From: Takakia lepidozioides
Taxonomy: Eukaryota; Plantae; Bryophyta
DNA length: 64,000 nucleotides
NCBI GenBank assembly: GCA_030704615.1
Contig: CM060731.1
Coordinates: forward strand, 93,248,001 to 93,312,000
Direction: 5' to 3'
Shown piece after piece: positions 3,024-30,815 of this stretch (its first letter is position 1; the number at the start of each line of letters is the position of its first letter). The translations under genes were made by a program, and so were the position numbers. A model generated the notes under the pieces. The model saw only the letters and a program-made list of their open reading frames with translations, searched no databases and was not told the DNA's origin.

Positions 3024-3667
3024 GCTCCCTCTTGTCGTCCTCAACATGGTCATCCTCCGGCGGAAGCACCTGGAACACTCTCTCCGTCTCTACTTCCCTC
3101 TCCCCGGCTTCACCTCGAACTTGCACAATCCGTGCTCTTTGTGGTGTTCTTTCACCTCCTCTAGTCTCCACCGTATGGGTAATTGCGGGGGCTGCTCCTG
3201 CCCGCGATGGTGTAACCGGTGTGTTACTGCCTCTTTGTGGTGTCTTGGAGGGATCCACCGTCTCTGTGCGTCCCTCGCTTACATGGGCATCTGTCATTTT
3301 GACACCCTTGGCCTCTTCAGTGGCCTTTTCTCTTGCCTCCTGGCTAGCCTTCTGCCTCATCTTTTCTTTTGCCCTCTCACGGGCCTTCTGTTTCTTACTA
3401 GGGGTAGCAACAGGGGAGGCCTCCAGGACGACCACCTTTGATTGAGGCGAACTGACACCCTTGCGCGCCCTGCTCACTCCCCTCTCTGCAGCCCGTGACG
3501 GCTCTCTCGCCGGGGATTGCATGTGCTTGGCTTTCTTCTTCTTCTTTGTGTGGGCGGGCCCTATTGCATGTGCATCAACATCCTCCATTGCCAGATCTGC
3601 TGTCCTCATCCCACGCCCTTCACCTGCCACGCCGCCTGCACCAACCTCCCCAATGCCTATTTTGTCG
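3024..3667 (-). pseudogene. Truncated inverted copy of exon 1 of the ParB-MTase accessory gene
   Basis: ORF 2995-3630 matches the N-terminus of 10835-11455 and 21730-22336. Homology stops abruptly at 3024. Confidence 0.9.
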
Positions 3668-3706
3668 GAGGTTAGCTATTTCATGAGCATGAGCGGCATG
3701 AGCGGA
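3668..3706 (+). repeat. Left terminal inverted repeat with CATGAGC(GG) sub-repeats
   Basis: gaggttagctatttcatgagcatgagcggcatgagcgga; inverted match to 15529-15567. Confidence 0.85.
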
Positions 3707-3919: not shown

Positions 3920-4240
3920 AAAAATGGCACCGAATTTCGCGGTAATATGTTCCCGCAAGCAGAAAAATCGGCGACGTATTGCGCGGTAATAGGTGACTCC
4001 GGCGAAAAATGGTGCCGAATTTCGCGGTTATAGTCCCAACTTCATTGAAGTGTAAGCCCAAAATTTGGAAATGTGGCGTCGAATTTCGGTACATGGTGCC
4101 GGGCATTGCACAAATGTTGGGCAGTTCTGGGCCATGTAACTGGAAATTCGGCACCATTTTTCCATACATCGTCTCCAGACAATGTTGGGACTTAGCCAGT
4201 TTTCGGCCCAAAAAGGGAAATTCGGCGCCATTTTTCCAGA
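3920..4240. repeat. Cluster of degenerate GGAAA-N3-GGCGCC-N3-TTTCC palindromes downstream of the transposase
   Basis: About six copies, e.g. 4142 ggaaattcggcaccattttttcc and ~4217 ggaaattcggcgccatttttcc. Confidence 0.75.
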
Positions 4241-4512: not shown

Positions 4513-7500
4513 TCAATGATTTCTGGAATCCCGGCGGAGGAGTTTGTGCAGCTCGTTCACGCTCAACGCTGGTGCATGAATAAAGTCATCAATAGTCAAG
4601 TTCATCCTCAACCTCTTCAGGTAAATGTAATACAGATGCTTGCACGGATAATACTTTGACCCCTTCTTTGCTTCCATCAACGAGAAGTCTGTACAATTGC
4701 AAGTCGGCTCCACTCCAATTGTAATTGTGTATATGTCGTCGCGTACAGCTGAGCCGGCCGTTGCCATCCGATAAACACGCCCAAGGCCGGGTGGGGGTAC
4801 GTCCACGGAGCTCTGAATAGTGCAAGTCATCCCAAGAGCATTGGCAATCCGAGTCTCATTCAACTTGTTGGGAGGGTGTCGTCTCTTCACTCTTCCGAAT
4901 CGCATTGTAGGATGTGCAGAATTGTCCAATCCGTCTCCACAGGACGGAGCAGCCTACAATGGCTGGGTGTGAGGAACTGGAAACGAGTGGGCCGGGACGT
5001 CTGTGCGTTGCACCATTCGAAATCCTGTTGCAGAAAGAGCATCCGCCTCATTCTGAGAGAGGTTGCAACCTGGTGCAACAGGCCAGACGCCCGGAGGCTC
5101 CGACATTCCTTGAATCCCGTACTTGGGCTTGCCAAATACACAGGTCATTATGTCATGCCTACAGAACCAAAACGTTTGCGTTGTGGCGTGAGAGAATGTG
5201 GGAGTCAAAAATCTGCCGCTGAAACAAGGTGTAAGTACAGCACCGTGTGGGTTCCTCCGAATCATCTCACCACAGCGTGCTCTCGTATCCACCCGGATGG
5301 CGCAGCACTTCCCTCGAAATGCCGGCAATGTCCTTGCTATTCTCCACTGTGACTCCGACACTCTTGTCTTCACAATGGGTATGTTGTACTGCGTTACTAC
5401 AGATGGCTCGTTATGTTCCTCGGGCACGTGCCCTGTGCTCAAAGGAGATGACGATCTTGAACGTGCAGGACTTGCGGTGCTTGACGAGACCTCCTCGGGC
5501 AACATCATGGGACCACGAGGGAGCGTGCGCATATTCTTGTTAGCTCGCCATGAATCCTCTTCTCCACCAGGTGCCTCGTCAAGTCTTTGTCTCACTGGAC
5601 GGGTGTGAACATCTCCTTCCAAGTGTTGGCCTCTTCGAAGCAATGGCGTGTCCCGAAGGCCCTCTCGCAAGGCTGCCGCCCACTTGCGAGGATTCTTCGA
5701 TCTGGAGGCAGTCCGCATCAGCATTTCCTGCCTGTCCGGCCCTAAGTCCCACTGTTTCCCTTTCAAGAACTCGTTGTACCTGCATTGCTGCATAATTGAC
5801 CTGACAATGTCCTCCATTGCGGTAGTGAGGATGTCCACCAGATGCGCCGCAGAGGAGGCACGCCAGGAAGAATGTACTGATTCGGCCATGTTTGTTGTCG
5901 GCATGTCGGTGTCGGAGTCCAGATACATTTCCTGCACACACATGTTGAGGTTACAAGCAAGTTACAAAGAATGAGTAGCATAATATTCAACGTGACACGA
6001 ATTCGTCCAACTCACCTCCCCCTGCATATAGTCGCCAAACTGGAGGAAACGATAATGCCACCATGCTAGCCAACTGACCATTGCTCCCTCGTCTAATTTC
6101 TTTACAGCACCTGACGTTGTCCACCAAGCCCGTATACATGCAAATTGTGTCTATGCATCATCCAAGGTGGGAGCACGCTTCCACGCAAGACACATGGAAC
6201 GGTGCTCCTCTCTGAAATCTGGCGCCATGAGCCGGGTTGTGTACTGCGACAAGCTCTGCAAAAAATGGAACCCACAAGACCTCTCCTTGCCTTCCATCGG
6301 AACATTGGGTCTTCCCCGTACACCCTTCAGATGGCAGCCCAATTTGCTTGTTCGTTGTCCGCCATGAAACCACGGAAATTGGGAGGGGGCAATCCCGCCC
6401 TGGCCATCTGTTTGTTTATTCCATGCCAAAGAAGCATCTCCGATTGTGTGTCCTCTCCTTTCATCTCACAAATAGCAATTGTCATTAGCATCCTGCAGTG
6501 GGTGTCGTAGACATGTGAGCCATTGTCACCCACTGGTGATTTGTAATTCGCTTGATATGGTCGAACATGACCCAACTGTTTGACAAGTCCCCACTCGTCA
6601 TCCGGTCGACCAGTTCGCGCCGCTGCCAGGCCCACACGTGGACATTTTGAATACAAAACAACGATCTGCCTCAGTCCCTTGTCCTGGAAACCTACTTCCA
6701 TGAATGTAGTCATATCCACATCGTCGCTTCACCTCCAGAATGGAGTGCATATCCGAGCCACGCCTAATTTTCTGTTTGCAGGAGACAATGTGGTTTCGGA
6801 CATTCGGTGAATAGACGTGGGACACTGACTCCAGCAATGCCTCCATTTCCTTCTCATCGAGAGGAACTCTGTCGGAGCCGTCTTCCGACATAATTCTGGC
6901 CAATGCCATCTTATGGGCGGCCTGCAGCTGTATCTGTTTGGGTTTGGCACCAGGTCTCAACCTAACCTCCTCCTGAACGAGCTGCCATGCCTCGTGGGCA
7001 GCCTCCCGCGAGTTCCCCCTCGCCAATTTGTGACAATGGGAAACAACGTGTATGCAAGCTCGTGTGAGGTCAGGGAAACGGTGCAACACATAGAACTGCT
7101 TGGCATTACAAACAGACATGCAATGTGGTGGTTCTTTCCAATGCGCACACTTAAATGTGGAGTTTGGAACCTTCTCCTGAGCTCGAAATGGTTGATGAGC
7201 TGTGCCTGTCCAATCCGTCTCGTTCCTGTGACCTCTGGATTTAAAGTGGAAGCAAGTTGGGGAGAAACACCGCAATGCGCCCGCACAAACAACGTAGCGC
7301 AGCCGCACACCATCGAGCATCTTCATGCTGGTGGTTTTGGTGACACACCAAGGATGGCCGTCATGTTTCCTATCCATATTTGTCAACATTCCGGACGCCC
7401 TCGAATAGTCCGTTCGAGGAGGGAACTCAAAGAAGATATTACCGTCGACGTCTGCGGGAAGGCATGTAATGGATTTAATGGCGAACTTGCTATAGTCCAG

Positions 7501-8093
7501 CCCAGCCAGCTCTTAGCGGTGTCCCTCCATGTGAAGCCCTCGCAGAATTTCAAGAATGGATCGAACTGATGTGTTCGTGCTGGGAATATGACTCCCTCGT
7601 CTGCTGATGTCCATCGAGGACTTGCCTGATCTCCAGGATGATCTCGGAACTTCCATGATCTCGTCGGAGTCGGACAAGTTGTGAACTCGCTCATCTTCAT
7701 TGATGGGTTCGGCTCTAGATTTACTTCGTTGAGGACTTCTCTCTTTGAGGTACCCACTCTCTGATTCGCTGATTGTTTCGTGGAAGACGGCAGGATAGAA
7801 GGAACATTTGGGGGGCAAATGAAGTCCCCAACAACCCTGTATATGACGCAGTCCGATGGTGGAACTCGCCATTCCCTGCCGTCGCCGAAATCATCGTGGA
7901 GCACAACAATACTTTCGACTACAACTCCGTTTGAATCCTTCCTTTCCTCCTCCAAAAATACCGACCCCGGTTTCAGGTGGTATCGAACGCAGAGATATTT
8001 CTCCATCACCCGGAAGATCTCCCCTCTACACGGAAATGTAGCTCTATGCTCGTGAGGAGGGCAGTACACTATAGCGCTCGGGCTTTCTGCCAT
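4513..8093 (-). pseudogene. MULE-type transposase (GCM-like Zn domain, DDE core with CxxH, SWIM finger), frameshifted
   Basis: HDGHPWCVTKT..YVVCAGALRC..C (GCM-like), MFDH, FMADN, CGFH, TTNMAES, CNCTDF..YPCKHL (SWIM). One intron ~5932-6015, several frameshifts, TGA at 6327-6329. Confidence 0.88.
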
Positions 8094-8509
8094 GGGAGTT
8101 GTGCACACAAGACTGCCAGGACGGCGTTCGGACAAGCGCCCTGGGAGAAGGGGGGATGCAGCGAGGGGAAGGAATGCAGGGCCGATTTTTGCAAGCGACG
8201 AAGCCTATTCACGAATCCGGGGAGCCCACTCTCCCGAAAATCCACTATCAGAGAGTTAATGAACCTTGTCTACGGAATGCGGCCCCTGGCCTTTGCGCAA
8301 TAACTGCCAACGGTATGCAGTCAGAAGGTATATGACATGTGCAGATGCGCTGCGCAAACCAATCATTACAGCGTCTGACAAGAAGCGTGGGGGCGCGAGC
8401 GTGCAAGCACCTTCCCCATGGACAGAGGGAACTAACAGAGGTGGCATTCCAGTGGGTCTGATTACAAGATTGAGTGCCAGAACCTCACCGCCAAAGTCAA
8501 CATACAACA

Positions 8510-9920
8510 GCGGCGCCGAATTTGCATCCGAGGCCGGTCGGACGATTTCGTCTCCAGGGTGAGTCGGTCACCTGGCCGACAGAGAACATCACCCGGATGG
8601 AAAAACGGCGCCAAATTCCCATCCGAGGCCCGTTGGATGAAGTCGTCTCGGGGGGAGAGGCCGACACCTGGCCGACTGAGATCATCCCCCGGATGGAAAA
8701 ACGGCGCCGAATTTCCATCGGAGGCCGGCCGGATGAAGTCATTTCGGGGGGAGAGGCCGACACCTGCTCGACAGAGAACATCCCCCGGATGGAAAAACGG
8801 CGCCGAATTTCCATCGGAGGCCAGCCGGATGAAGTCGTTTCGGGGGGAGAGGCCGACACTTGCTCGACATAGAATATCCCCCGGATGGAAAAACGGCGCC
8901 GAATTTCCATCGGAGGCCGACACCTGCTCGACAGAGAACATCCCCCGGATGGAAAAACGACGCCGAATTTCCATCGGAGGCCGACACCTGCTCGACAGAG
9001 AACATCTCCCGGATGGAAAAATGGCGCCGAATTTCCATCGGAGGCCGACACCTGGCCGACAGAGAACATCCCCCGGATGGAAAAATGGCGCCGAATTTCC
9101 ATTGGAGGCCGGCCGGATCAAGTCGTTTTGGGGGGAGAGGCCGACACCTGGTCGACTGAGATCAACCCCCGGATGGAAAAACGGCGCCGAATTTCCATCG
9201 GAGGCCGACACCTGCTCGACAGAGCACATCTCCCGGATGGAAAAACGGCGCCGAATTTCCATCGGAGGTCGACACCTGGCCGACAGACAATATCCCCCGG
9301 ATGGAAAAATGACGCCGAATTTCCATCGGAGGCCGGCCGGATGAAGTCGTTTCAGGGGGAGAGGCCGACACCTGGTCGACTGAGATCATACCCCGGATGG
9401 AAAAACGGCGCCGAATTTCCATCCGTCCACGCTCCGAATTACCTGCAGGATGGAAATTTGGCGCCGAATTTCCATCCGAGGCCCGTAAGATGAAGCCCGT
9501 ATCGGCAGTTCTTCAAGAATTTATAGTCGTTGCATCAAGTTTTTCGCGTTTTTTGTATGGCTACACACTAAACTTAGAGTTTTTTGCCTACATGCCACAT
9601 TTCGCACGTTATTCCCACCATTCTGGTCCGCTAAAGACAAATTCGTTGCCGGTTTTCCATCGATGAGGTGGACCGAATTACCTGCAGGAAGGAAATTCGG
9701 CGCCGGATTTCCATCCGTCCACGCTCCAAATTACCTGCAGGATGGAAATTCGGAGCCGGATTTCCATCCGGCGCCCCTCTGACTTACCTGGCGGATGGAA
9801 ATTTGGCGTCGGATTTCCATTCGGCGTCTCCTGGATGAGAACTGCTGGGGCGGAGGGAGGGCCTCGTTGCGTCACACTTTATCCGCTGGATGGAAATTCG
9901 GCGCCGATTTTTTCCATCCA
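8510..9920. repeat. Central palindrome array with 96-, 64- and 53-bp units
   Basis: GGATGGAAA..GGCGCC..TTTCCATC starts at 8595, 8691, 8787, 8883, 8947, 9011, 9075, 9171, 9235, 9299, 9395, 9448, then 9687, 9740, 9793, 9888. Confidence 0.95.
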
Positions 9921-12900
9921 ACGGGCGATTGACGAAGTCTCGGGGGGATATTCGGTGGGCGCCTGTGACCGACCTCCATACATTAATGGCGCTTTTGGGC
10001 ATTAAATGTCCTCCACCGTCGGTTTTGAACCGGGCTGGCGACACAGGGATTCCGCGGTTTCTTCCCGGATACGCCTTGGAAACCTGATGCTAAACTTGGA
10101 TGAACTTCTATTCGAGGCATGTACACACACATTGGGCGAGATCTTTTTTCTTTTGCCGGGACTTATGCCGCGTGGAGAAGGGCGTGGCTCTCCTGAGAGA
10201 GACCCCACATCCAAACCGCGGCGGAAGCTGAAGGCTTTGTACTACGGGCGACGTCCAACCTCTCGCATGGCCAAACTTAAGCTCTAGCAGGAGATTTCAT
10301 TGTCTTGCTCACAACCCGCGCCAACTGAAGCCGAGCACTCTCAGGCAAGCCACTTCCTCTTTCGCTTTGTGTAACACGTGCGGTTTTTTTCATTTTTTTG
10401 GTTTGTTTCCGCATCTTCAGCCTGGCAGCCCTGGAAGCGCATGGTTGCATCGCAAAAGCAGGAGTTGTTGAGAAGAATGATCAAGGTCAGAGTGGTTAGA
10501 AAGGAGCCAAGTCATTGCTGCATTCAGATTTGCAACAGGGTGCACACCTCGCTGTAGATAACAGGTTGCAGTTCGGAATTAAGGAAATCCATACTGAGCT
10601 GAGAAGATTGTCTGAGCTGAGAAGATTGTCTGAGCAGATGAAGTGGTATGAAGTGGTAGATGAAGTGGTACATCTCCAATCACTCGAGCAGTCACTCCAA
10701 AAGCCGCTACTCATCGCATGTTTGGATCGCCCAACTTGGGGCGGGAGGGCAAACTAAAACCTTTTGTTGGTGGACGGGAGGACCTGCAGCGAGAGTACGA
10801 CAGAATAGGCATTAGGGAGGTTGGTGCAGGCGGCATGGCAGGTGACGGGCATCGGATGAGGACAGCAGATCCGGCAATGGAGGATGTTGATGCACATGCA
10901 GTAGGGCCCGCCCACGCAAAGAAGAAGAAGAAAGCCAAGCTCATGCAATCCCTGGCGAGAGAGCCGTCACGGGCTGCGGAGGGGGGAGTGAGCAGGGCAC
11001 GCGAGGGTGTCAGTTCGCCTCAATCAAAGGTGGTCATCCTCGAGGGCTCCCCTGCTGCTACCCTTAGTAAGAAACAAAAAGCCCATGAGAGGGCAAAAGA
11101 GAGGGCAAAAGAACAGGCGAGACAAAAGGCTAGCCAGGAGGCAAGAGAAAAGGCCACTGAAGAGGCCAGGGGTGTCCAAATGACAGATGCCCATGTAAGC
11201 GAGGGACGCACAGAGACGGTGGATCCCTCCAAGACACCACAAAGAGGCAGTAACACACCGGTTACACCATCGCGGGTAGGAGCAGCCCCCGCAATTACCC
11301 ATACAGTGGAGACTGGAGGAGGGGAAAGAACACCACAAAAAACACGGATTGTGCAAGTTCGAGGTGAAGCCGGGGAGAGGGTAGTAGAGACGGGGAGAGT
11401 GCTCAAGGTGGTTCCGGCGGTGGTTGACCATGTTGAGGACGATGAGAGGGAGCTTTCTGACCAGGATGACATCCTCCCGGACATCCCCAGGCCCCAAACC
11501 CGGAGCATACAGGCTGGATTTGGCGGTCCGGGTGGGCTGCCGGAGAACCCCCCTGCAACAGACATCATGTCGGAGGCGGATATGAAGTTTGCCACTGCCA
11601 AGATGTTGGAGGCAACCCACAACAACATTGGCAGGGTCCTGGGGGGCATGGTGTACCCGGCCAAGCTTCGGATTCCCCTTTGCCGCTTGGTTTCATTGCA
11701 GGTGGTCAGACCTGCCCTCCCAGGCGATATTGACAAGCTGAAATTCTCTTTCCGGGAGGGATATCGAATGGGGTCTGCCGCATTTTACGTTTCCATGGAG
11801 AACGACCACGGAGCTTCTCGTGCCCACACTTCCGATGAGGTGGACAAATGGGGTCCCCATTGGCAAAGGGAGGAGTTCGAGAGATTGATTGCTACTGATC
11901 CTCTTTTCCAGCACTTGTCCGGAAAGATGTTTTACGTGTGGGACGGCAATCATCGCCTCCTGGCATGGATGGAGTACATAGCCCAAGCCCACCCCAACGA
12001 CCTGGATTGGCATTTCGCCGTGGAGTGTGTTGTGCTCAAGGTTGCGGGGCCCAAAGATCGCAGTCTTCTCAAAGCGGCAATGGCAGACATCAACTCGTAA
12101 GTTACAATGCTTCTTGCTTTGGAACTTTGAATTTGAAACTGACATTTCATTGCCAATCGTCATATTTGTTGCAAATTATCATTTCTGTATTGTTTAATGG
12201 AAATGTGGCATTGCAAGGTAACTGAGAATGCCTTCATTGCCACCAACTTGTCCCATATGCTCTTTCCGAGTGAAGGATGTCGGGAAGCAGGGGGTGCAAG
12301 AGTTTGCCAATTCGCTCAGTGCCGACCTCCTGCACAAGTCGGAGGCAAAGGCACACAGAACCTGATATAGGCTGAGCATGGATGCCATGGTGGATTACTT
12401 ATTTTGGGTAAAGCTCCTCACTGTTTGTTGAGCTAATCTGTCTCTCCTCCCCCAATAGAAGAAAAAGTGTTGAGCAGGATCTCTAATCTTATGTGCGCAT
12501 TCTTGACAGACGAAAATTCAGCAGGATTTGGCACATGCGCGGAGGTTCTACATGGAGTTAGAGGAGAAGAAACTAACCCTTCCGGCACTGGAATCGTATC
12601 TCAAAGCTGCGGAGGCGATGGCCCGCATCAAGTACAAGTCGCGAATGGTAAAGTACGCGGCCATAGCTGATCCCGCCCTTGGTGCCGATTTTTTGGTGGA
12701 GGTGGGGAAGCACTTCTCCCGCGCTCTGAAGCCCACAATGACATTGGAGAAGCTGCATCGTCTAGCCATATCATGTGTGGATGCAACAGAAAAGGTTATA
12801 CATTCTTAACCAAATTGTCGTGGCAGCAATTCATTTTTGTGGTGTTTGGCGCTTACTAATATGTTGGGTGGTTGGACAGACCCGGTGGCTCCAAATCTAG

Positions 12901-13237
12901 AATGGTTCCCAAAGTACAAGGGACATGTGGACAGGTGACGACGAATGCGCAAGAGCAGCTTGACACACAAGCACATCAGTTCAAGCTGGAGATTTTTGGC
13001 GAAGCAGAGAGCCTACGCGACTATGTGACGAGGTATTTTCTGCTCTACAAAACCGACCTATTCTTTCGAGAGATACCCCATGCCCGCCGGAGCCACGAGT
13101 TCACCGACCAGCCAAACGCGGACAAAGCGGCAATGCGCCTTCTGTACAGGTACATACGCTGTGCCTTTTTTTTTAGTCCTAACATTTCCAGGATGTAAGA
13201 GGCCCTATGTGGCGCATGAAAATTAGTTGTGGTCCTA

Positions 13238-13745
13238 GGAAAAATGGCGCCGAATTTCCGAATTCGGGCCCTGGGGGATGGTTGTCCAGGGGGTGCGTGG
13301 CACTCAGTCCGGAAATTCGGTGCCATTTTTCCAGGTTCAAGCCCAGTGAGATCTGGGACTTAGCCATTCTCAGCCCCAACCTGGGAAAATGGCGCCAAAT
13401 TTCTAGTTGAGGGCCCCGAAAATGGCTAGGTCCCTGGGGTGGCTGGCACCGAATCCGGAAATTCGGCGCCATTTTTCCAGATCAGGGCAAAGTCAGCTCT
13501 GGGACTTAGCCATTTTCAGGCCCAACCAGGGAAAATGGCGCCGAATTTCCAGTGAACGGCCCCGAAAATGGCTAAGTCCCTTTGGAGGCAGGCACCGAAA
13601 CCGGAAATTCGGCGCCATTTTTCCAGTTCCGGGCCCAGTGAGTTCTGGGACTTAGGCATATTCGGTCCCAACCTGGGAAAATGACGCCGGTTTTCCAGTG
13701 CACGGTCCCTAGTGTGGCAGGCACCGAAACCGGAATTTCCAGTTT
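13238..13745. repeat. Intronic 146-bp tandem repeat with two oppositely oriented palindromes per unit
   Basis: ggaaattcgg at 13311, 13457, 13603; lies after splice donor 13150. Confidence 0.9.
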
Positions 13746-14967
13746 CGGGCCTAGTCAAGGACATCTGTCCTTCGAGCCGCCATTCTTCCTCGCATGGAGG
13801 AACCCTGGGGCTGACTCCATGTACACTGATGTCATCGTGAAGGAGTGACATCTGGAACATTTGCGCGACTGCCCTTGGTATGTGGACCTTCCGCCCGGCT
13901 CGCTTGACCCATCCGAGTTTCAATTCAAGCTGGATGTTGAGGCTCGACGAAACCGGGCTCTGCTGCCTCCGCTGGGTCCAAAGGAGGCAAGAGCGCTTGC
14001 CCAGTCCAGGAAAGCGGCAAAGCTTGCTCAGGCAGGTATTCAAGAGAAATTGAATGAGAAGAATAAAGGACAAAAGAAAAGGACACGGAAACAGGGGAGT
14101 ACAGTAACCCCCAAAAAACAGAAAACCACCGGGGCACGAGAGAAGGCGCAGGAGGGGCCCCAAGGGAGTGACTCCGATGACGACTTTGTGCAAGGTCCTG
14201 CGACTGCTGTTGCTGCTACCAAGTCACCGGTCGTCCGGGTTTTCAAGTCAGTTCGGTCTAGGACTGGCTCTGCCAAGAAGTTGGCATTTGAGGGCCCGCT
14301 TTGTCCCTCAGGTGTCTCAATGTGGGCAGGGACATTGTCCGACAGGCATGTCTTCGCCTTCGAGCCAGATACTGCCCTCCACAACTCCGAACTTGCAGCG
14401 GCTGAACGTCTGCCGAAAGAGGAAGAGGCATCCTCGGAGGATGAGGAAGAATCCGACAAGGAGCAGGGGGAGGTACAAGTTGGGATCGAGGCCGAGGAGC
14501 TCCCGGTGTATGAGTGAGTGGTCGCATTGTAAGTTGCCTCCTGATTTCGTGAGGCACCTCCCTTCGCTCTCTTATTTCATTGAAAGACCCTTTTTTGTTT
14601 CTCCTGGTATTGACAATCTTAAAGTGGATTTGTTCTTACTGCAGGATGCCAAGTACTTTAGGAGGGACGTCTACACCGCAGTTCATGGGCAGGAGGAACG
14701 TGCATTTTTTTGCCAGGGGGGATTTCATGCCTAGTCCATAAAGGAACTACATCCTTCCTACTTATGTTGCCCGGCTTGCTTCGGTGTCCATTAGGAGGTC
14801 TTCCGAACCTAGTCGTGTACAACAGATTTTAGACGAGGCAAGCCTCAAGAAAATGAAGATGAGGGAGGAGGCATCAGCTATAAGAGCCCGTCAGGCTCGT
14901 AGATTTGTCTTGGATTCTGCTGAGGAAAGTGGGGGAGAAGAGGCAGAAGATTCCCAGGAGGTGAGGT

Positions 14968-15212: not shown

Positions 15213-15528
15213 TTCCCCCAAGGAGAGGACGGAATTTTTGAGAGGCATAGTGGAACTGATGCATCACAGAGCTTGGAGGATGGGGGGGATGAGGAGGAAG
15301 GCGGGGCAAGTTCCTCGGAGGGTGTAGGAGAGTAGTGCCGATTCCGGCTATGACAATTATGACACACTTGTATAGATGTGGCTTGCCACAAAATTTGTAA
15401 TAAAATGTTGCATTTCATTGCTATGACGAGTCCATTGGTGCCAAATTCCAACTTGATATGACCCTATTTCCGTGCCTCCTAACCCTATTTCCGTGGACAC
15501 ACAATGGTCCGCTCATGATTTTTTTTTT

Positions 15529-15567
15529 TCCGCTCATGCTCATGCCGCTCATGAAATAGCAACCCCC
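15529..15567 (-). repeat. Right terminal inverted repeat of copy A
   Basis: tccgctcatgctcatgccgctcatgaaatagcaaccccc. Confidence 0.85.
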
Positions 15568-16774
15568 TTCCGTCGTACTCTCGCTGCAGGTCCTCCTGTC
15601 CACCAACGAAAGGTTTTAGTTTGCCCTCCCGCCCCAAGTTGGGCAATCCAAACATGCGATGAGTAGCGGCTTTTGGAGTCACTGCTCGAGCAGTTGGAGC
15701 TGTTGATGATACCACCAGCGTGTCGGGCTCGTCATCACTTTGTCATCCCCAAAAATCGTGAGAACCAACATCAGAATGAAAACCACCATCGCAACGAGCA
15801 GCGCAACCACCATCGCAACATTCGAGGAACAACAATGAAAACAAAACAAAACCAAGTATGGAGTGGCATGGAACAACAATGAAAAACAAATCCAACCAAT
15901 GCCTAAGAATGACATGCACAAGCAGCCTTCTCCAGAGCTGCCGGCTTTGCACACGCATTGCAAACTATCTAAGGTTCACTCAACCAGTAACTTGCAGAAA
16001 TCAACATGAAACACGATGAACAAATGAACACAAATTCCATAAGACGGGAAAACAGGGTTAAATGTTTTGAAGGCACTTCATCTGCTCAGACAATCTTCTC
16101 AGCTCAGCATGGATTTCCTTAATTCCGAGATGCAACCTATTATCTACAGCGAGGTGTGCACTCTATCTGGCAAGCAATCTGATTGCAGCAACGACCTGGC
16201 TCCTTTCTAACCACTCTGACCTTGATCATTCTTCTCAACAACTCGTGGTTTTGCGATGCAACCATGCGCTTCCAGGGCTTCCAGGCAGAAGATGTGAAAA
16301 CAAACTAAAAAAACGAAGAAAACCGAAAGAGGAAGGGGCGGAACCTGAGAGTGCTCGGCTTCAGTTGGCACGGGCTGTGAGCAAGACAATGGAATTTCCT
16401 ACAGGAGCTTAAGTTTGGCCATGCGAGAGGTTGGACGTCGCCCATAGTACAAAGCCTTCAGCTTTCGCCGCGGTCTGGATGTGGGGTTTCTCTCAGGAGA
16501 GCCACGCCCTTCTCCACGCGAAATAAGTCCCAGCAAAAGAAAAAAGATCTCGCAGTATGTGTGCGTACATGCCTCGAATAGAAGTTCATCCAAGTTTAGC
16601 ATCAGGTTTCCAAGGCGTATCCGAGAAGCAAGCGCGGAATCCCTATGTCGCCAGCCTGGTTCAAAAACGACGGCAGAGGACATTTAATGCGCAACTACGC
16701 CATTAAATGTCGTAGGTATGGAGGTCGGTCACAGGCGCCCACCCTCCCCCGAGACTTCGTCAATCGCCCGTTGG

Positions 16775-17900
16775 ATGGAAAAAATCGGCGCCAAATTTCC
16801 ATCCAGCGGATGAAGTATGACGCAACGAGGCCATCCCTCCGCCCGAGCCGTTCTCATCCAGGAGACGCCGGATGGAAATCCGGCGCCGCATTTCCATCCT
16901 GCAGGTAATTCGGAGCGCGGCCGGATGGAAATCCGGCGCCGAATTTCCATCCCAGAGGTAATTCCGAGCGCGGCCGGATGGAAATCCGGCGCCGAATTTC
17001 CATCCGCCAGGTAATTCAGAGCGCAGCCGGATGGAAATCTGGCGCCGAATTTCCATCCCAGAGGTAATTCGGAGCGCGGCCGGATGGAAATCTGGCGCCG
17101 AATTTCCATCCGCCAGGTAATTCGGAGCGCGGCCGGATGGAAAAACGGCGCCGAATTTCCATCCCAGAGGTAATTCGGAGCGTGGCCGGATGGAAATCCG
17201 GTGCCGAATTTCCATCCCACAGGTAACACGGATAGAAGCCGGATGGGAAACCGGCGCCGAATTTCCATCCTGCAAGTAATTCGGTCCACCTCATCGATGG
17301 AAAACCGGTAACGAATTTGTCTTTAGCGGACCAGAATGGTGGGAATAACGTGCCAAATGTGGCCTGTAGGCAAAAAACACCAAGTTTAGTGTGTAACCAG
17401 ACAAAAAAACGCGAAAAACTTGATGCAACGACTAAAAATTGTTGAAGAAGTGCCGATACGGGCTTCATTCAACGGGCCTCGGATGGAAATTCGGCGCCGA
17501 ATTTCCATCCGGGGGATGTTCTCTGTCGGCCATGTGTCGGCCTCTCCCCCCGAGACGACTTCATCCAACGGGCCTCGGATGGAAATTCGGCGCCGTTTTT
17601 CCATCCGGGGGATGTTCTCTGTCGGCCATGTGTCGGCCTCTCCCCCCGAGACGACTTCATCCAACGGGCCGCGGATGGAAATTCGGCGCCGTTTTTCCAT
17701 CCGGGGGATGTTCTCTATCGGCCAGGTGTCGGCCTCTCCCCCCGAGACGACTTCATCCAACGGGCCTCGGATGGAAATTCGGCGCCATTTTTCCATCCAG
17801 GGGATGTTCTTTGTCGGCCAGGTGTCAGCCTCTCCCCCCGAGACGACTTCATCCAACAGGCCTTGGATGGAAATTCGGCGCCGTTTTTCCATCCGGGGGA
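16775..17900. repeat. Central palindrome array of the inverted copy (8 sites at 53 bp, 5 sites at 96 bp)
   Basis: Sites at 16870+53n to 17241 and 17481+96n to 17865. Perfect 32-bp palindrome at 17480-17511. Confidence 0.95.
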
Positions 17901-18406
17901 TATTCTCTGTCGGCCCGGTGACTGACTCACCCCCGAGACGACTTCGTTCGACCGGCCTCGGCTGCAAATTCAGCGCCGCTGTTGTATGTTGACGATTGGC
18001 AACGAGGTTCTGGCACTCAATCTTGTAATCAGACCCACTGGAATGCCACCTCTGTCAGTTCCCTCTGTCCATGGCGAAGGTGCTTGCACGCTCGCCCCCC
18101 CCCCCCCCCCCACGCTTCTTGTTAGACGCCGTAATGATTGGTTTGCCCAGCGCATCTGCACAGGTCATATACCTTCTGACTGCATACCGTTGGCAGTTAT
18201 TGTGCAAAGGCCAGGGGTCGCATTCAGCATACAAGGTTCATTAACTCTCTGACAACGGACTTTCGGGAGAGTGGGCTCCCCGGATTCGTGAATAGGCTTC
18301 GTCGCTTGCAAAAATCGGCCCTGCATTCCTTCCCCTCGCTGCATCCCCCCTTCTCCCAAGGCGCTTGTCCGAACGCCGTCCTGGCAGTCTTGTGTGCACA
18401 ACTCCC

Positions 18407-20854
18407 ATGGCAGAAAACCCAAGCGCTATAGTGTACTGCCCTCCTCACGAGCATAGAGCTACATTTCCGTGTAGAGGGGAGATCTGCCGGGTGATGGAGA
18501 AATATCTCTGCGTTCGATACCACCTGAAACCGGGGTCGGTATTTTTGGAGGAGGAAAGGAAAGATTCAAACGGAGTTGTAGTCGAAAGTATTGTTGTGCT
18601 CCACGATGATTTCGGCGACGGCAGGGAATGGCGAGTTCCACCATCGGACTGCGTCATATACAGGGCTGTTGGGGACTTCATTTGCCCCCCAAATGTGCCT
18701 TCTATCCTGCCGTCTTCCACGAAACAATCAGCGAATCAGAGAGTGGGTACCTCAAAGAGAGAAGTCCGCAACGAAGTAAATCCAGAGCCGAACCCATCAA
18801 TGAAGATGAGCGAGAACCGGGTTGTTCACAACTTGTCCGACTCCGACGAGATCATGGAAGTTCCGAGATCATCCTGGAGATCAGGCAAGTCCTCGATGGA
18901 CATCAGCGGACGAGGGAGTCATATTCCCAGCACGAACACATCAGTTCGATCCATTCTTGAAATTCTGCGAGGGCTTCACATGGAGGGACACCGCTCAGAG
19001 CTGGCTGGGCTGGACTATAGCAAGTTCGCCATTAAATCCATTACATGCCTTCCCGCAGACGTCGACGGTAATATCTTCTTTGAGTTCCCTCCTCGAACGG
19101 ACTATTCGAGGGCGTCCGGAATGTTGACAAATATGGATAGGAAACATGACGGCCATCCTTGGTGTGTCACCAAAACCACCAGCATGAAGATGCTCGATGG
19201 TGTGCGGCTGCGCTACGTTGTTTGTGCGGGCGCATTGCGGTGTTTCTCCCCAACTTGCTTCCACTTTAAATCCAGAGGTCACAGGAACGAGACGGATTGG
19301 ACAGGCACAGCTCATCAACCATTTCGAGCTCAGGAGAAGGTTCCAAACTCCACATTTAAGGGTGCGCATTGCAAAGAACCACCACATTGCATGTCTGTTT
19401 GTAATGCCAAGCAGTTCTATGTGTTGCACCGTTTCCCTGACCTCACACGAGCTTGCATACACGTTGGTTCCCATTGTCACAAATTGGCGAGGGGGAACTC
19501 GCGGGAGGCTGCCCACGAGGCAGAGCAGCTCGTTCAGGAGGAGGTTAGGTTGAGACCTGGTGCCAAACCCAAACAGATACAGCTGCAGGCCGCCCATAAG
19601 ATGGCATTGGCCAGAATTATGTCGGAAGACGGCTCCGACAGAGTTCCTCTCGATGAGAAGGAAATGGAGGCATTGCTGGAGTCGGTGTCCCACGTCTGTT
19701 CACCGAATGTCCGAAACCACATTGTCTCCTGCAAACAGAAAATTAGGCGTGGCTCGGATATGCACTCCATTCTGCAGGTGAAGCGACGATGTGGATATGA
19801 CTACATTCATGGAAGTAGGTTTCCAGGACAAGGGACTGAGGCAGATCGTTGTTTTGTATTCAAAATGTCCACGTGTGGGCCTGGCAGCGGCGCGAACTGG
19901 TCGACCGGATGACGAGTGGGGACTTGTCAAACAGTTGGGTCATGTTCGACCATATCAAGCGAATTACAAATCACCAATGGGTGACAATGGCTGCACATGT
20001 CTACGACACCCACTGCAGGATGCTAATGACAATTGCTATTTGTGAGATGAAAGGAGAGGACACACAATCGGAGATGCTTCTTTGGCATGGAATAAATGAA
20101 CAGATGGCCAGGGCGGGATTGCCCCCTCCCAATTTTCGTGGTTTCATGGCGGACAACGAACAAGCAAATTGGGCTGCCATCTGAAGGGTGTACGGGAAAG
20201 ACCCCAATGTTCCGATGGAAGGCAAGGAGAGGTCTTGTGGGTTCCATTTTTTGCAGAGCTTGTCGCAGTACACAACCCGGCTCATGGCGCTAGATTTCAG
20301 AGAGGAGCACCGTTCCATGTGTCTTGCGTGGAAGCGTGCTCCCACCTTGGATGATGCAGAGACACAATTTGCATGTATACGGGCTTGGTGGACAACGTCA
20401 GGTGCTGTAAAGAAATCAGACGAGTTAGCAATGGTCAGTTGGCTAGCATGGTGGCATTATCGTTTCCTCCAGTTCGGCGACTATATGCGGGGGGAGGTGA
20501 GTTGGACGAATTCGTGTCACGTTGAATATTATGCTACTCATTCTTTGTAACTTGCTTGTAACCTCAACATGTGTGTGCAGGAAATGTATCTGGACTCCGA
20601 CACCAACATGCCAACAACAAACATGGCCGAATCAGTACATTCTTCCTGGCGTGCCTCCTCTGCGGCGCATCTGCACAGACTTCTCGTTGATGGAAGCAAA
20701 GAAGGGGTCAAAGTATTATCCGTGCAAGCATCTGTATTACATTTACCTGAAGAGGTTGAGGATGAACTTGACTATTGATGACTTTATTCATGCACCAACG
20801 TTGAGCGTGAATGAGCTGCACAAACTCCTCCGCCGGGATTCCAGAAATCATTGA
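18407..20854 (+). pseudogene. MULE transposase copy with GCM-like domain and a ~1.15 kb internal deletion before SWIM
   Basis: ORF open to 19912. Shares the frameshift (~19892) and TGA (20182-20184) with copy A. Intron 20497-20580; deletion junction ~20672. Confidence 0.88.
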
Positions 20855-23459
20855 TGGGGAAAAGGGAATCCACCATATGGATATTTGCAATTGCATTTTT
20901 ATGCATTAGACTTTGTTTTGCAGTGTAATGAATTGCACCCCAAAACTCCTGGAACGAGACAGACAATATTAAAGTGATGTCTTTTAAACACTAGGGACTG
21001 TTGGATATCCGTTGACGTCCAGTGGCAATTCAATGTCGAAACAGAATCAATACAAAGATGGCGGCAAGAAAAATTTGCAAATCTTTCAGAAAACTGAGTT
21101 CCAACAGTTGCAGTTGAGGGGGCCATTTCTGGAAAAATGGTGCGGAATTTCCCTTTTTTGGGCCGAAAACTAGCTAAGTCCCAACATTGTCTGGAGACGA
21201 TGTCTGGAAAAATGGCGCCGAATTTCCAGTTACATGGCCCAGAACTGCCCAACATTTGTGCAATGCCCGGCACCATGTACCGAAATTCGGCGCCACATTT
21301 CCAAATTTTGGGCTTACACTTCAATGAAGTTGGGACCTATAACCGCGAAATTCGGCACCATTTTTCGCCGGAGTCACCTATTACCGCGCAATACGTCGCC
21401 GATTTTTCTGCTTGCGGAACCTATTACCGCAAAATTCGATGCCATTTTTGCAGATGTCGCTCGGAATTCGCATGAGCGGAAAACGAAATATCATGAGCAC
21501 GGCTCTCAAAACTACAATTTCTACTTCAAACAATGAATATTATATTGGTTTTTTTTTTTTTTTTTTTGGACACATCCCATTCAAATAATGTTTTTAATGT
21601 TTTTTATTTGCAGAATTTGTACTTCTCCTCATGAAAACCGATTGTCTTACTACTCCGCTCATGCCGCTCATGCTCAGGAAATAGCTAACCTCCGACAAAA
21701 TAGGCATTGGGGAGGTTGGTGCAGGCGGCATGGCAGGTGACGGGCATCGGATGAGGACAACAGATCTGGCAATGGAGGATGTTGATGCACATGCAGTAGG
21801 GCCCGCCCACGCAAAGAAGAAGAAGAAAGCCAAGCACATGCAATCCCCGGCGAGAGAGCCATCACGGGCTGTGGAGAGGGGAGTGAGCAGGGCGCGCAAG
21901 GGTGTCAGTTCGCCTCAATCAAAGGTGGTCGTCCTGGAGGCCTCCCCTGCTGCTACCCCTAGTAAGAAACAGAAAGCCCGTGAGAGGGCAAAAGAATAGA
22001 CGAGACAGAAGGCTAGCCAGGAGGCAAGAGAAAAGGCCACTGAAGAGGCCAGGGGTGTCGAAATGACAGATGCCCATGTAAGCGAGGGACGCACAAAGAC
22101 GGTGGATCCCTCCAAGACACCACAAAGAGGCAGTAACACACCGGTTACACCATCGCGGGCAGGAGCAGCCCCCACAATTACCCATACGGTGGAGACTGGA
22201 GGAGGTGAAAGAACACCACAAAGAGCACGGATTGTGCAAGTTCGAGGTGAAGCCGGGGAGAGGGCAGTAGAGACAGAGAGAGTGCTCCAGGTGCTTCCGC
22301 CAGAGGATGACCATGTTGAGGACGACAAGAGGGAGCTTTCTGACCAGGATGACATCCTCCCGGACATCCCCAGGCCCCAAACCCGGAGCATACAGGCTGG
22401 ATTTGGCGGTCCGGGTGGGCTGCCGGAGAACCCCCCTGCAACAGACGTCATGTCGGAGGCGGATATGAAGTTGGCCGCTGCCAAGATGTTGGAGGCAACC
22501 CACAGCAACATTGGCAGGGTCCTGGGGGGCATGGTGTACCCGGCCAAGCTTCGGATTCCCCTTTGCCGCTTGGTTTCATTGCAGGTGGTCAGACCTGCCC
22601 TCCCAGGCGATATCGACAAGCTGAAATTCTCTTTCCGGGAGGGATATCGAATGGGGGTCTGCCGCGTTTTACGTTTCCATGGAGAACGACCACGGAGCTT
22701 CTCGTGCCCACACTTCCGATGAGGTGGACAAATGGGGTCCCCATTGGCAAAGGGAGGAGTTCGAGAGATTGATTGCTACTGATCCTCTTTTCCAGCACTT
22801 GTCCGGAAAGATGTTTAACGTGTGGGACGGCAATCATCGCCTCCTGGCATGGATGGAGTACATAGCCCAAGCCCACCCCAACGACCTGGATTGGCATTTT
22901 GCCGTGGAGTGTGTTGTGCTCAAGGTTGCGGGGCCCAAAGATCGCAGTCTTCTCAAAGCGGCAATGGCAGACATCAACTCGTAAGTTACAATGCTTCTTG
23001 CTTTGGAACTTTGAATGTGAAACAGTCATTTCATTGCCAATCGTCATATTTGTTGCAAATTATCATTTCTGTATTGTTTAATGGAAATGTGGCATTGCAG
23101 GGTGACTGAGAATGCCTTCATTGCCACCAACTTGTCCCATATGCTCTTTCCGAGTGAATGATGTCGGGAAGCAGGGGGTGCAAGAGTTTGCCAATTCGCT
23201 CGGTGCCGACCTCCTGCGCAAGTCGGAGGCAAAGGCAGACAGAACCTGGTATAGGCTGAGCATGGACGCCATGGTGGACTACATATTTCGGGTAAAGCTC
23301 CTCACTGTTTTGTTGAGCTAATCTGTGATAGGCTGTGTCACGTTTGTTTTGCCCGCCCTGGTCATATATGCTGGGCCTAGCGACAAGTGCTCCATACTCC
23401 GTTCGTAACACTGGTGCAGCCCGTGACTGCTCTTGCGGTTCAACATGCAAATCATGCTG

Positions 23460-24786
23460 CAAGGGTTTGTCATGGATACCACTGTACCCCTTCAACTTAT
23501 TGGCATTGACTCTTCCCAGCATTTCTTTGTTAATGGTTTGTAACATGGCGGTGTTGTTATCATACATCTTTTGTATGACATAAGGTCCTTTCCATGGTGA
23601 TTTAAGCTTAGAAGCTTGAATCTTTCCTTTCTTCTGCAACCATAGAACCAAATCCCCCGTCTTAAAGTCTTTAACTTGCCTTCATCAAACTGTTTATTTC
23701 GCTTCATCTGAATTCTGGTCATATTATCAGCTGCATCAGCACGTACATTCTTCACACACTTCCACATGGTATAATTCATGTTTCCTGACCTTGATGGAGT
23801 CTTCCCCGCAATAAATCCAATCTTTTTCTGCCCATTCTCTTTCCCACTCCGTTCTCATGGTAGGTAACAGGAATTCCACTGGAAGTAAGGCTTCCATACC
23901 ATAAACTAATTGGAATGGTGTATACTTAGTGGTGACTTTATATGAAGTCTTGTATGACCACAAAGCTGTCAGCAGCTTTGTATCCCAATCCGTTCTGTTT
24001 GCATTGACTATCTTAGCCAAGATAGTACATAGTATTTTGTTGGTAGCCTCTGCCTGCCCATTACCCTGTGGGTAATATGTTGTACTATTTCTATGCACAA
24101 TCATAAACTCTTTAGTCAACAACTCAATGGTCTCATTCATGAAGTGACTTCCCTGATCACTGATAAATTCTAAGGAACAGCCAAATCGTGTAAGTATGTT
24201 CTCGTATAGGAACCTTGCTGTGGACTTGGCTGTGTTGTCCCTCAAAGCTTTAGCTTCCACCCACTTTGTAGTATAATCAGTGGCTGTAATTATGTACCTG
24301 TTTCGTGTATTCTTGGATGGTGGGTTAATTGGTCCAACAAAGTCTAGTCCCCATTTCTGAAATGGTTCCGTAGGCATTGTAGGATGCAAGGCCATCCTTC
24401 CAAATCTCTGCAAAGGTCCTAGCCTCTGACATTCATCACACTTCTGACAATACTCGTGTACATCTTTGAACAAAGTAGGCCACCAGTATCCTGCGAGTAG
24501 TATCTTCCTACTGGTAGTCTCTTCTCCAAAATGACCTCCAGCCACTCCTTTATGAACTTCTGCCAAAACTTTATTTACTTCATGGTGGTACAAGCATCGT
24601 TTTAGTACTCCATCAGGTCCTAACTTATACATTCTGCTTCCTACCATAGTATAAGGTAAAGCTTTGATAGCGATTCTCTTCCTCTGCTCCTTACCATAAC
24701 TAGGTGGGCACTGACCATGAGCAAGGTAGTATCTGATTGGCCACTGCCAATCTAACCAGTCATCTGCACTTCCCTGCACCTCCACT
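23460..24786 (-). pseudogene. Gypsy integrase
   Basis: H..GGH..CQKCDEC zinc motif, WGLDFVGP, SDQGSHF, NGQAE, WKGPY. Confidence 0.92.
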
Positions 24787-24839
24787 CTTTCTTCCATGGG
24801 TTTACATTGTTCTTTGCCTAACCCCTAAAATGAAAACGA

Positions 24840-27056
24840 TCAAGTGTAGTAATCCAATTGAGAATTGGAAGCACAGAACTAACTGATGTACTGATAGATG
24901 GTGGTTCTGGAGTAAATATCATGACAGACCAATTAAGGACGAAGCTTGGTCTAACTAACATGAAACCAGCCCCATTTACAGTAACAATGGCAGATCAAAG
25001 AAGTGTACAACCATTGGGATTAATAAGATGAGTTAAGATACAGATACAGAAGATGATCTTTATGATCACAGTAACTGTATTGAAAATGGATGAAGTCATG
25101 GAGGCTTACTCCTTATTATTGGGACGTCCGTGGCTGAAACAGGCCAGGGTATTCCATGACTGGAATTCTCAGTTACTAACCGTGCATAATGGGATACACG
25201 AGATACAAATTACCACAAAGAAATCTAGTAGATTACCTGCTACAAGAAGACCTCGAGGAGTCAGAGAGTATGACTGGAAAGGAGGACTGGATGAGGAGCA
25301 GGAAGCTACCCTATTTGCTGCACACCCAGAGTGGGAGCAGGTTGCAGAGATGCGGCTGGAAAGCCTAAGTTGTTTGAGAGGTATCTACTGTGGTGTAGTG
25401 ACAGCAACACCAACTGAAGAGGAAACCAGCATTTACCCATCACATTTCTATGAAGAAAGAGAAGGAGAAATAGAAATCCTAGAAGAACCAGCCACTGTGA
25501 GCTTACAGGATGAAGTGGTGACTGGTTGGACAATCACAGCTGATGAGCAGGTGAGGGAAGTGAATGTGGGAACTAAAGAGGAACCGAGGATGGTGAAAGT
25601 AGGAGCTGATTTGGAGCCGGAATTCTTCGAAGAAGCTAAAAGCTTGTTCATCAAATACAGAGATGTATTTGCTTGGAGCTATGAGGATCTAAAAGGGATA
25701 CCACCTGAAGTCTGTCAACATAAGATTGAACTGGAACCAGGGTCAGTACCAATCAAGCAGGCGAGGTATAGAATGAATCCCAACTACGCACAGAAGGTTG
25801 GAGAAGAGATAAAGAAGTTGGCTGAGGCTAAGTTTATATACCCAATAGAGTATACAACTTGGTTGTCACCCATTGTTATAGTTCCCAAGAAGAATGGCAA
25901 ACTAAGAGTATGTGTGAACTATAAGAAGCTGAATGCTTGTACGAAGAAAGATCCTTTCCCTTTGCCATTCACAGAAGCAGTATTAGACACTGTGGCAGGC
26001 CATGAGATGTACTCATTCATGGATGGCTTCAGTGGTTATAATCAAGTGCAAGTGACAGAAGAAGACCAAGGGAAAATAGCTTTCATCACAGACTGGGGGG
26101 CTTATGCATACAAAGTCATGCCCTTTGGACTTTGTAATGCACCAGCGACCTTTCAGAGAGTGATAAGTGAATCTTTTCATGAGTATCTGGATGATTTCAT
26201 GCAGGTATTATTGGATGATTTCAGTGTGTACAGCTCTAAGAATGAGCACTTGCATAAATTGGAGTTATGTTTGGCCAGATGCAGGATGAGAGGTCTGGGC
26301 CTGAATCCAGAGAAGTGTACTTTCTGTGTGAACTCAGGGTGCTTCTGGGACACATTGTGTGTAAGAAGGGACTCCTTGTGGATCCCAGAAAGACAGAGTC
26401 CATTAAAGCCTCTCCACCACCAGTGAATGTTAAAAGTCTACGGAGATTCCTTGGGCAAACCAGTTATTACAGGAGATTTGTCAAAAGGTATGCACAAATA
26501 GCAGCACCATTGAGCAAACTACTGAAGAAAGATGCAGTGTTTGCCTGGACAGCTGAATGTCAACAGGCATTTGAGGAACTTACACTGTCAGTAACAACTA
26601 CACCTGTGCTGATTAACCCTCACTGGCATGTAGTATTCCATGTTCACTGCGATGCATCAGGAGAAGCGTTGGGAGCGGTGTTAGCCCAGAATGTTACAGG
26701 GAATATAGATTCACCTGTGTACTATGCTAGCCGGTTGATGAACAGTGCTGAAAGGAACTATAGCACAACGGAAAGAGAAGCATTGGCAATGATCTATGCA
26801 GTGAAGAAATTCAGGCATTACCTGTTGGGCAAGAAGTTTATGTTCTATGTGGATCACCAGGCTCTGATATACCTGGTAAACAAACCTCTGATAAGCGGAA
26901 GAATAGCAAGATGGTTGATAATCTTGCACGAGTTTGAGTTCGAGGTTGTTTACAAGCCTGGGAGACTGCTTCTTGTGGCGGATCATTTGTCACGATTGTC
27001 AACAGGAGAACTAGCCACAGGAATAGATGATCAATTACCAGATGCGAGTCTCTTTG
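24840..27056 (+). pseudogene. Gypsy protease, reverse transcriptase and RNase H (inverted segment)
   Basis: LIDGGSGVN, MPFGLCNAPATFQ, LLDDF, HCDASG, NYSTTERE; frameshifts. Confidence 0.92.
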
Positions 27057-27059
27057 CGG

Positions 27060-29531: not shown

Positions 29532-30299
29532 GTCCCATGTCTTTCATTTCTTTTAATTTGGCCCCCAATAGAAGAAAAAGTGTTGAGCAGGATCGCTAAT
29601 CTTATGTGCGCATTCTTGACAGACAAAAATTCAGCAGGATTTGGCACATGCGTGGAGGTTCTACATGGAGTCAGAGGAGAAGAAACTAACCCTCCCGGCA
29701 CTGGAATCGTATCTCAAAGCTGCGGAGGCAAGTACAAGTCGCGGATGGTAAAGTACGCGGCCATAGCTGATCCCACCCTTGGTACCGATTTTCTGGTGGA
29801 GGTGGGGAAGCACTACTCCCGCGCTCTAAAGCCCACAATGACATTGGAGAAGCTGCATCGTCTAGGTATTTGGCGCTTACTAATATGCTGGGTGGTTGGA
29901 CAGACCCGGTGGCTCCAAATCTAGAATGGTTCCCAAAGTACAAGGGACATGTGGAGCTTCCCCAAACCCGACAAACTGTCCGACCCCACATTCGACATGT
30001 GGATGAACCACATGACATGGTGGTTTCAGGTACTTTCCCACGCTTCATTTGGGGCGTCTACTCTTGTATCGGATGGATTTATTGTATTTTTTGAGGAAAG
30101 CGGTCTGATAGAGAATCTCCACAGGTGACGACGAATGCGCAAGAGCAGCTTGACACACAAGCACATCAGTTCAAGCTGGAGATTTCTGGTGAAGCAGAAA
30201 GCCTACGCGACTATGTGACGAGGTACTTTCTGCTCTACAAAACCGACCTATTCTTTCGAGAGATACCCCATGCCCGTCGGAGCCACGAGTTCACCGACC

Positions 30300-30815
30300 A
30301 CGGCCCCGAAAATGGTTAAGTCCCTGGGGTGGCTGGCACCGAAACTGGAAATTCGGCGCCATTTTTCCAGTTCCGGGCCCAGTCAGTTCTGGGACTTGGC
30401 CATTTTCGGGCCCAACCAGGGAAAATGGCGCCGAGTTTCCAGTGCACGGCCCCGAAAATGGCTTAGTCCCTTTAGAGGCAGGCACCTCAACTGGAAATTC
30501 AGCGCCATTTTTCCAGTTCCGGGCCCAGTGAGTTCTGGGACTTGGCCATTTTCGGCCCCAACCTGGGAAAATGGCGCCGGTTTTCCAGTGCAGGGCCCCG
30601 AAAATGGCTAAGTCCCTAGTGTGGCAGGCACCGAAACCGGAAATTTGGCGCCATTTTTCTAGTTCCAGGCCCAATCAGTTTTGGGACTTAGCCATTTTTG
30701 GCCCCAATCTGTGAAAATGGCGCCGAATTTCCAGTTGAGGGCCCCGAAAATGGCCAAGTCCCTGGGGTGGCTGGCACCGAAACTGGAAATTCGGCGCCAT
30801 TTTTCCAGTTCCGGG
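30300..30815. repeat. Intronic 146-bp palindrome repeat, second copy
   Basis: ggaaatt at 30347, 30493, 30639, 30785; upstream of the acceptor at 30885. Confidence 0.9.

Follow-up and report, generated by a model that had tools for sequence, protein, structure and literature searches.

Only for a few elements has it been shown by experiment how transposons evade silencing by their host. Within VANDAL MULEs, VANC targets tandem repeats that lie in introns, between genes and near the termini (PMC5735166), and the accessible part of a Bostrychia preprint names VANDAL alone as binding and modifying its own sequence. ParB domains have been described in algal transposon genes. As far as the available portions of these reports go, the Ectocarpus element Sola1-1_Ec32 carries a 1,104-aa ParB plus N4/N6-methylase gene opposite its transposase, with similar green and red algal proteins cited (PMC12477816), and in red-algal Plavaka a ParB-oxygenase gene adjoins inverted-repeat arrays (bioRxiv 10.1101/2025.02.11.637652). 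For the ParB-methylase class there is to date no more than a proposal, made in a few sentences of work on algal genomes. In KorB, N146 is required for clamp closure (PMC11790492), and in phage loci ParB adjoins methylases (PMC4738411).

Here we analyzed a 64,000-nucleotide stretch of the Takakia lepidozioides genome (Bryophyta; GCA_030704615.1, contig CM060731.1, positions 93,248,001 to 93,312,000, forward strand), referred to as the window, in whose coordinates all positions are given. An exon with a predicted ParB/sulfiredoxin (Srx) fold is the first exon of a broken, intron-bearing gene within a 12-kb plant cut-and-paste transposon, where the gene lies head-to-head with a Mutator-type transposase inside terminal inverted repeats (TIRs). 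The element and its second copy comprise the following features.

3667..3706, + strand: left TIR, aligning with the reverse complement of 15529-15567; outer base uncertain, 3667-3670
4067..4240, strand not given: subterminal copies of the 22-bp palindrome
4600..8204, - strand: broken Mutator-type (MULE) transposase with stops and frameshifts, read in translation
8599..9915, between the divergent genes: tandem arrays of 53-, 64- and 96-bp units with the 22-bp palindrome
10835..11587, + strand: exon 1, disordered N-terminus with NLS-like KKKKKAK (putative NLS function)
11588..12096, + strand: exon 1, predicted ParB/Srx-fold domain; R41, DGNHR (119-123) and N169 of the 170-aa model
12097..12217, + strand: intron 1, at a family-conserved position; acceptor unlike that of the second copy
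12218..13150, + strand: exons encoding the middle, all-helical region, disrupted by a 1-nt insertion near 12263, an in-frame stop and an internal deletion at 12931
13151..13756, + strand: intron with 146-bp repeats carrying the 22-bp palindrome, skipped in a contig of run X9
13757..14517, + strand: downstream exon with the end of the middle region, a linker and the last methyltransferase-like strands; methyltransferase N-half deleted at 14295
15529..15567, - strand: right TIR; past 15567 other copies diverge, and contigs have loose ends
15568..21690, + strand: inverted copy of the element's left half (arrays, transposase, left TIR)
21693..33048, + strand: second broken ParB-methyltransferase gene copy, ending in a right TIR; Ty3/gypsy insertion at about 23327-29561
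31722..32130, + strand: methyltransferase-like remnant of the second copy, with DIPD, DLTCGTG, an intron and the last strands; middle deleted at 31936

The TIRs, at about 40 bp short for a MULE, delimit an element at 3667-15567 and bear out residence in a TIR transposon, as the initial annotation had claimed. Their end motif occurs 4 times in the window against 0.28 expected. The minus-strand gene contains D (VMFDH), D (FMADN), CxxH (CGFH), E (TNMAES) and a C-terminal SWIM-type CxC..CxH, which assign it to the MULE DDE transposases with CxxH and SWIM finger; a Pfam scan gave no MULE domain match on the pieces scanned. The flanks are rearranged; where a MULE would have an 8-11-bp target-site duplication, they show a putative, decayed one of 7-10 bp, which repeats a site from the 5' region of the element itself.

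Window 3024-22336 forms an inverted duplication of about 19 kb whose arms share 86-99% similarity. Both ends of the element meet a single site upstream in its own ParB gene, in the 5' region, with the decayed 7-10-bp duplication; the arrangement resembles the outcome of alternative transposition, sister-chromatid or intramolecular. A second, diverged MULE transposase remnant with a SWIM finger lies at 39885-42010 on the minus strand and is related to the transposases beside ParB genes in loci L012, L050, L069 and L080; its part at 39885-41351 matched Pfam SWIM below the cut-off (E=0.0097). Rearranged and broken Ty3/gypsy elements occupy 23327-29561 and 33306-35182, one of them inside intron 2 of the second ParB-methylase copy. 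Two Ty3/gypsy copies with a chromodomain, 92-99% alike and in direct and inverted arrangement, are found at 42384-54045 and have a CpG o/e of 0.86, versus 0.25 in older gypsy. A short ORF at about 36970-37310 (minus strand) resembles, by eye, a fragment of a PPR protein.

The open reading frame of exon 1 has its ATG at 10835, and all motifs quoted in the initial annotation are in frame.

10919-10939, + strand: KKKKKAK
11672-11689, + strand: IPLCRL
11705-11713, + strand: VRP
11726-11752, + strand: DIDKLKFSF
11783-11791, + strand: FYV
11933-11968, + strand: YVWDGNHRLLAW
12086-12094, + strand: DIN

The N-terminus had been described as long, basic and disordered. The first 250 residues do have a disordered look, with 1 aromatic residue and 105 P/G/S/T/A, and KKKKKAK is present, but they are not net basic (39 K+R versus 39 D+E). 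Judged by sequence, the ParB exon domain exceeds chance, with 267 homologues at E<=0.001 (among 4,787 candidates) and 445 cluster representatives at 50% clustering. Of 30 homologues looked up, 13 carry an organism name: Riccia sorocarpa (6), Adiantum nelumboides (5) and A. capillus-veneris (2). Searches of Pfam and PDB by sequence or profile returned nothing significant for the domain, while a ParB-like PHROG match reached only E=0.029 and a weak DndB match appeared in 5 of 85 domain members, at best with E=0.0059.

An AlphaFold2 model of the domain, built from an 85-sequence alignment, has a pLDDT of 88. Compared with 48,161 solved chains, it reached Z of at least 5 with eight: KorB, PadC, plant and human sulfiredoxin, SerK, a ParB-N domain, SbnI and Atu1540 (Z 6.1-8.1, rmsd 2.3-4.0, 80-100 aligned), after which scores drop to 3.0. 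Taking SerK, SbnI and Atu1540 as members of the ParB/Srx superfamily, the top chains are all of this type. Foldseek gave nothing at E<=0.001 in the PDB and viral libraries, with Srx, Noc, PadC and ParB as top PDB rows (best E=0.043) and ParB-like phage proteins as top viral rows (best E=0.0018). Each score alone is not strong, and a Z of about 8 is middling; from their agreement across the structure searches the exon domain is predicted to have the ParB/Srx fold, in line with the original call.

The model also places the most conserved residues. A GxxR-type nucleotide motif (DGNHR) and an upstream Arg are present and near-invariant in the 85 rows (R41 in 81, G120 in 84, H122 in 83, R123 in 79), as is N169 (82). 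The KorB structural match stops at residue 170 of the model and 147 of KorB, which suggests that N169 corresponds to KorB N146, the register being read from the range ends only. Modeled as a homodimer with ATP/Mg, homologue P0001 (80-300) scored 0.52 versus 0.00 for the best control, with at least 75% of contacts agreeing between runs and pLDDT of at least 66. Of the solved pairs, 21 of 30 attained the dimer mark, as did 0 of 23 single chains, but among eukaryotic pairs lacking an older relative the figure was only 1 of 7; the P0001 pass may reflect memory of ParB dimers. A ligand was present in the modeling, with ATP replacing CTP. N235 and R107 are at the interface of the modeled dimer, where the same memory caveat applies. 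The ParB/Srx fold is also found in non-clamp enzymes such as Srx and SerK.

A search of the ESM Atlas with the ParB exon showed 0.94 feature-level similarity to ascomycete clusters, with DUF3723 in 31% of members. We take DUF3723 to be Starship cargo, and these clusters are a possible second eukaryotic mobile-element ParB family; a literature search on this lead found no paper.

Exon 1 ends exactly at 12096, with a GT donor at 12097. The identical DIN-x position is where 66 of 120 listed homologues stop, and this common stop argues for a shared intron. GT..AG introns at 30026-30122 and 32254-32371 are skipped by contigs of X8 and X9, which are RNA by guess only, no run being recorded as RNA. 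Together the two observations confirm the spliceosomal introns proposed at the outset. Downstream, the middle region of a homologue gave an all-helical model (pLDDT 71). A search for relatives of this region found no specific match, to an HTH domain or otherwise (Atlas best 0.81; VIA best Z 7.7, generic helices; viral best E=0.37).

The initial annotation recognized the ParB domain correctly but was incomplete, as this domain is the N-terminal part of a ParB plus N4/N6-methyltransferase fusion. The second half of the gene, missed earlier, is on profile and motif evidence a permuted (beta-class) N4C/N6A DNA-methyltransferase domain. The liverwort protein Riccia P0261 (1,207 aa) has the full ParB-helical-PF01555 chain, its paralogues P0265 and P0271 are above the PF01555 cut-off (31.7 and 27.0 versus 26.7 bits), and the fusion also occurs in fern proteins P0182 and P0207 and in loci L003 and L081. 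The methyltransferase profile matched M.CcrMI with E=0.0048, with motif IV ahead of motif I in the permuted order. The window remnants align with the PF01555-positive homologues, and in the second copy motif IV (DIPD) is at 31761-31772 and motif I (DLTCGTG) at 31936-31956. Eleven phage records matched the methylase weakly (E 0.004-0.06), and the best PHROG match had E=4e-9. UniRef labels Riccia sorocarpa P0259, P0261, P0262 and P0266-P0268 as 'Trimethylguanosine synthase', where the labeled region is the methylase-like part of the transposon gene; the label is probably wrong.

In one rival model, ParB loads an active DNA methylase at the palindromes, and 6mA or 4mC marks the element active or blocks 5mC. 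An active writer was put forward for the Ectocarpus protein (PMC12477816), bacterial-type 4mC enzymes are functional in Marchantia and rotifers according to the accessible literature, and the present family retains motif I and the following acidic residue in liverwort, metagenome and window copies. Motif IV mostly keeps its D and P, with DVPF in one fern copy. However, the catalytic (D/N/S)-P-P-(Y/F/W) motif is absent, the window reading DIPD, and an aromatic fourth residue is kept in 1 and gone in 23 of the 24 rows read, which represent 16 proteins (14 of them Riccia paralogues) and 8 locus or window rows. Since motif IV is degenerate, we class the domain as methyltransferase-like rather than as an active member. 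It is probably a methylase domain without normal (canonical) activity, and we regard an active writer as unlikely.

Both window copies are dead. The central copy is disrupted by one inserted nucleotide near 12263, by a stop, and by three deletions, at 12931, 13757 and 14295; the second copy has frameshifts, is split by a Ty3/gypsy element and has lost the middle of its methylase at 31936. Related contigs carry extra bases at 31936, about 417 in X6 and about 347 in X9, and related copies are more complete than those in the window. In one DNA-type run, 15,672 contigs map to 3.5 kb, a figure that is not a copy number but points to many variant copies.

The 22-bp palindrome occurs 24 times in the element and 0 times in its coding DNA, which makes up about 54% of the element by rough exon bounds. 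It was found 0 times in 30 shuffles and 0 times at window 33,100-64,000. The copies fall into three clusters expanded in tandem (subterminal, intergenic and intronic) and are for that reason not independent. Of 48 related loci, 11 have palindrome families of their own and 37 have none, where five local shuffles gave 0-1; the 232 kb around the gene contain 65 sites, and the 160 kb farther out a single one. The palindrome sequences vary by family, several with a GGCGCC-like core.

These sites could instead be bound by the transposase, with the ParB-methylase protein serving as a transposition helper (end pairing, target choice, or divergent-promoter control as in MURB or KorB-type repression) and having no anti-silencing role. 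Palindromes also lie directly inside the left TIR (4067-4240), two divergent genes flank the largest array, and the AtMu1 transposase itself activates cognate copies, as stated in the accessible part of that report (10.64898/2026.08.24.746577). Yet in the window element, as in L030, L049 and L057, a palindrome array sits deep within the accessory gene, in an intron remote from either terminus, a placement that fits the VANC pattern and the arrays adjoining red-algal PAG3. We consider a transposition helper rather unlikely.

To place the gene among its relatives, the best 80 of 108 matches in a metagenome scan plus L081 were reduced to 48 distinct loci. Within this set, an opposite-strand transposase lies upstream in 7 of the 14 distinct loci with at least 8 kb of upstream sequence; 1 of the 14 has a same-strand transposase upstream, and 6 have no upstream transposase match, many loci being short or decayed. 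Downstream, any transposase was seen in 1 of 13 loci with at least 8 kb (upstream opposite-strand versus downstream, Fisher p=0.033). A check of the linkage of homologues to transposases had been suggested initially, and the locus comparison supports a gene family linked to transposases rather than ordinary host genes. No convincing TIRs were found in 11 long related loci.

MULEs frequently capture host fragments, and both window copies are broken, so that a passively captured host or contaminant gene of the Pack-MULE type, of no use to the element, has to be considered. Against capture, the head-to-head layout, the intron positions and the near-invariant residues are kept at about 40% identity over many loci, the Riccia paralogues are dispersed (26 of 26 matches), and no single-copy host orthologue was seen among the 30 proteins looked up. 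Given the conserved linkage, passive capture is largely refuted and appears very improbable.

The initial annotation had further proposed that the domain was acquired long ago from a prokaryote or virus. Both domains are of prokaryote or phage type, and a prokaryotic origin is likely, but sequence searches, including viral contigs and 50,697 phage records (E<=1), turned up no homologue of the ParB exon in prokaryotes or viruses. An older transposon cassette of eukaryotes may have been the immediate source. The only GTDB match, L081 (1-4691), comes from a cyanobacterial bin and was considered as a bacterial donor. It has the introns of the plant gene, so it is a plant contaminant and not a donor. 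L081 is a complete ParB-methylase transposon gene with its own palindrome array, and such contamination could be mistaken for a bacterial donor.

Our preferred reading, which we put at about an even chance, is that the gene encodes a spliced accessory protein joining ParB, a helical region and an N4C/N6A-methyltransferase-like domain, which intact copies use to shield the DNA of their own element from silencing. The protein would bind the element's palindromes as a dimer, a nucleotide-dependent clamp would close as in ParB/KorB, and from there the clamp would extend over the element. The main part of the SAM-binding methylase fold would be that of a shield that binds DNA or flips bases, not that of a canonical methylase, and the element would be guarded against silencing in a VANC-like manner. 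The anatomy, the fusion, the linkage to transposases, the conserved nucleotide-site residues, the degenerate motif IV and the non-coding placement of the palindromes are observed, whereas we infer binding, clamping and anti-silencing from KorB and VANC. A bolder reading, which we consider less likely than not, is that seedless land plants have a eukaryotic ParB/parS-like system, in which a transposon-encoded, NTP-gated sliding clamp loaded at family-specific palindromes would spread a methylase-like domain over kilobases and keep the element unsilenced. If true, this would be the first such sliding-clamp chromatin regulator in a plant nucleus and a second, independent MULE invention of anti-silencing.

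A ParB clamp offers a concrete way in which short motifs could protect a whole element. With land-plant members that have spliced copies and a cognate palindrome of known sequence, the class can be tested directly in bryophyte or fern models. The ParB plus methylase accessory class is already in print for algae, where it is only proposed; the land-plant MULE variant is new. Our literature search found no land-plant report of a ParB-methylase transposon gene, with thin coverage of subscription papers and supplements, which may list plant members.

The comparisons that follow draw on the accessible portions of the cited works. Bacterial-type amino-methyltransferases have been recruited by eukaryotes or transposons in Marchantia (MpDN4MT1), in bdelloids (N4CMT) and in DAM-carrying retrotransposons (10.64898/2026.05.21.726589). 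Unlike the present domain, MpDN4MT1 and N4CMT retain SPPY; the elements that carry DAM are retrotransposons; and 'ParB' occurs 0 times in the main texts on all three. The ParB/KorB/Noc clamps share with our protein the predicted fold, a GxxR-type motif, the conserved Arg and Asn, nearby palindromes and, tentatively, a predicted homodimer (PMC11790492), and the phage loci share a ParB beside methylases (PMC4738411). These prokaryotic and phage systems differ in that identity is only 10-20%, whereas here there is no ParA and no recognized HTH or C-terminal dimer domain, and the gene is spliced and eukaryotic.

Closer in setting are the eukaryotic transposons. Plavaka PAG2/PAG3 likewise has a ParB-like domain in a transposon accessory gene beside tandem inverted-repeat arrays, and the cassette also occurs in Chondrus Mutator elements; there, two separate genes carry the domains, one with ParB fused to a 2OG-oxygenase and one with the methylase fused to a SET domain (bioRxiv 10.1101/2025.02.11.637652). 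VANDAL/VANC of Arabidopsis is also a MULE that carries an accessory gene, and its fast-evolving motifs form arrays within introns, between genes and in terminal DNA, but VANC function was shown experimentally, its motifs are short and non-palindromic, and no ParB or methylase domain is described in the accessible text (PMC5735166). Ectocarpus Sola1-1_Ec32 differs in being a Sola element of a brown alga rather than a MULE of land plants, and motif IV is mostly degenerate here. In domains and layout the two agree: in the fusion within a single protein, whose size is similar (1,104 aa, against 1,207 aa for the Riccia protein), in the strand opposite the transposase and in residence in a large DNA transposon, and for the Ectocarpus element, too, modification of the element itself has been proposed.
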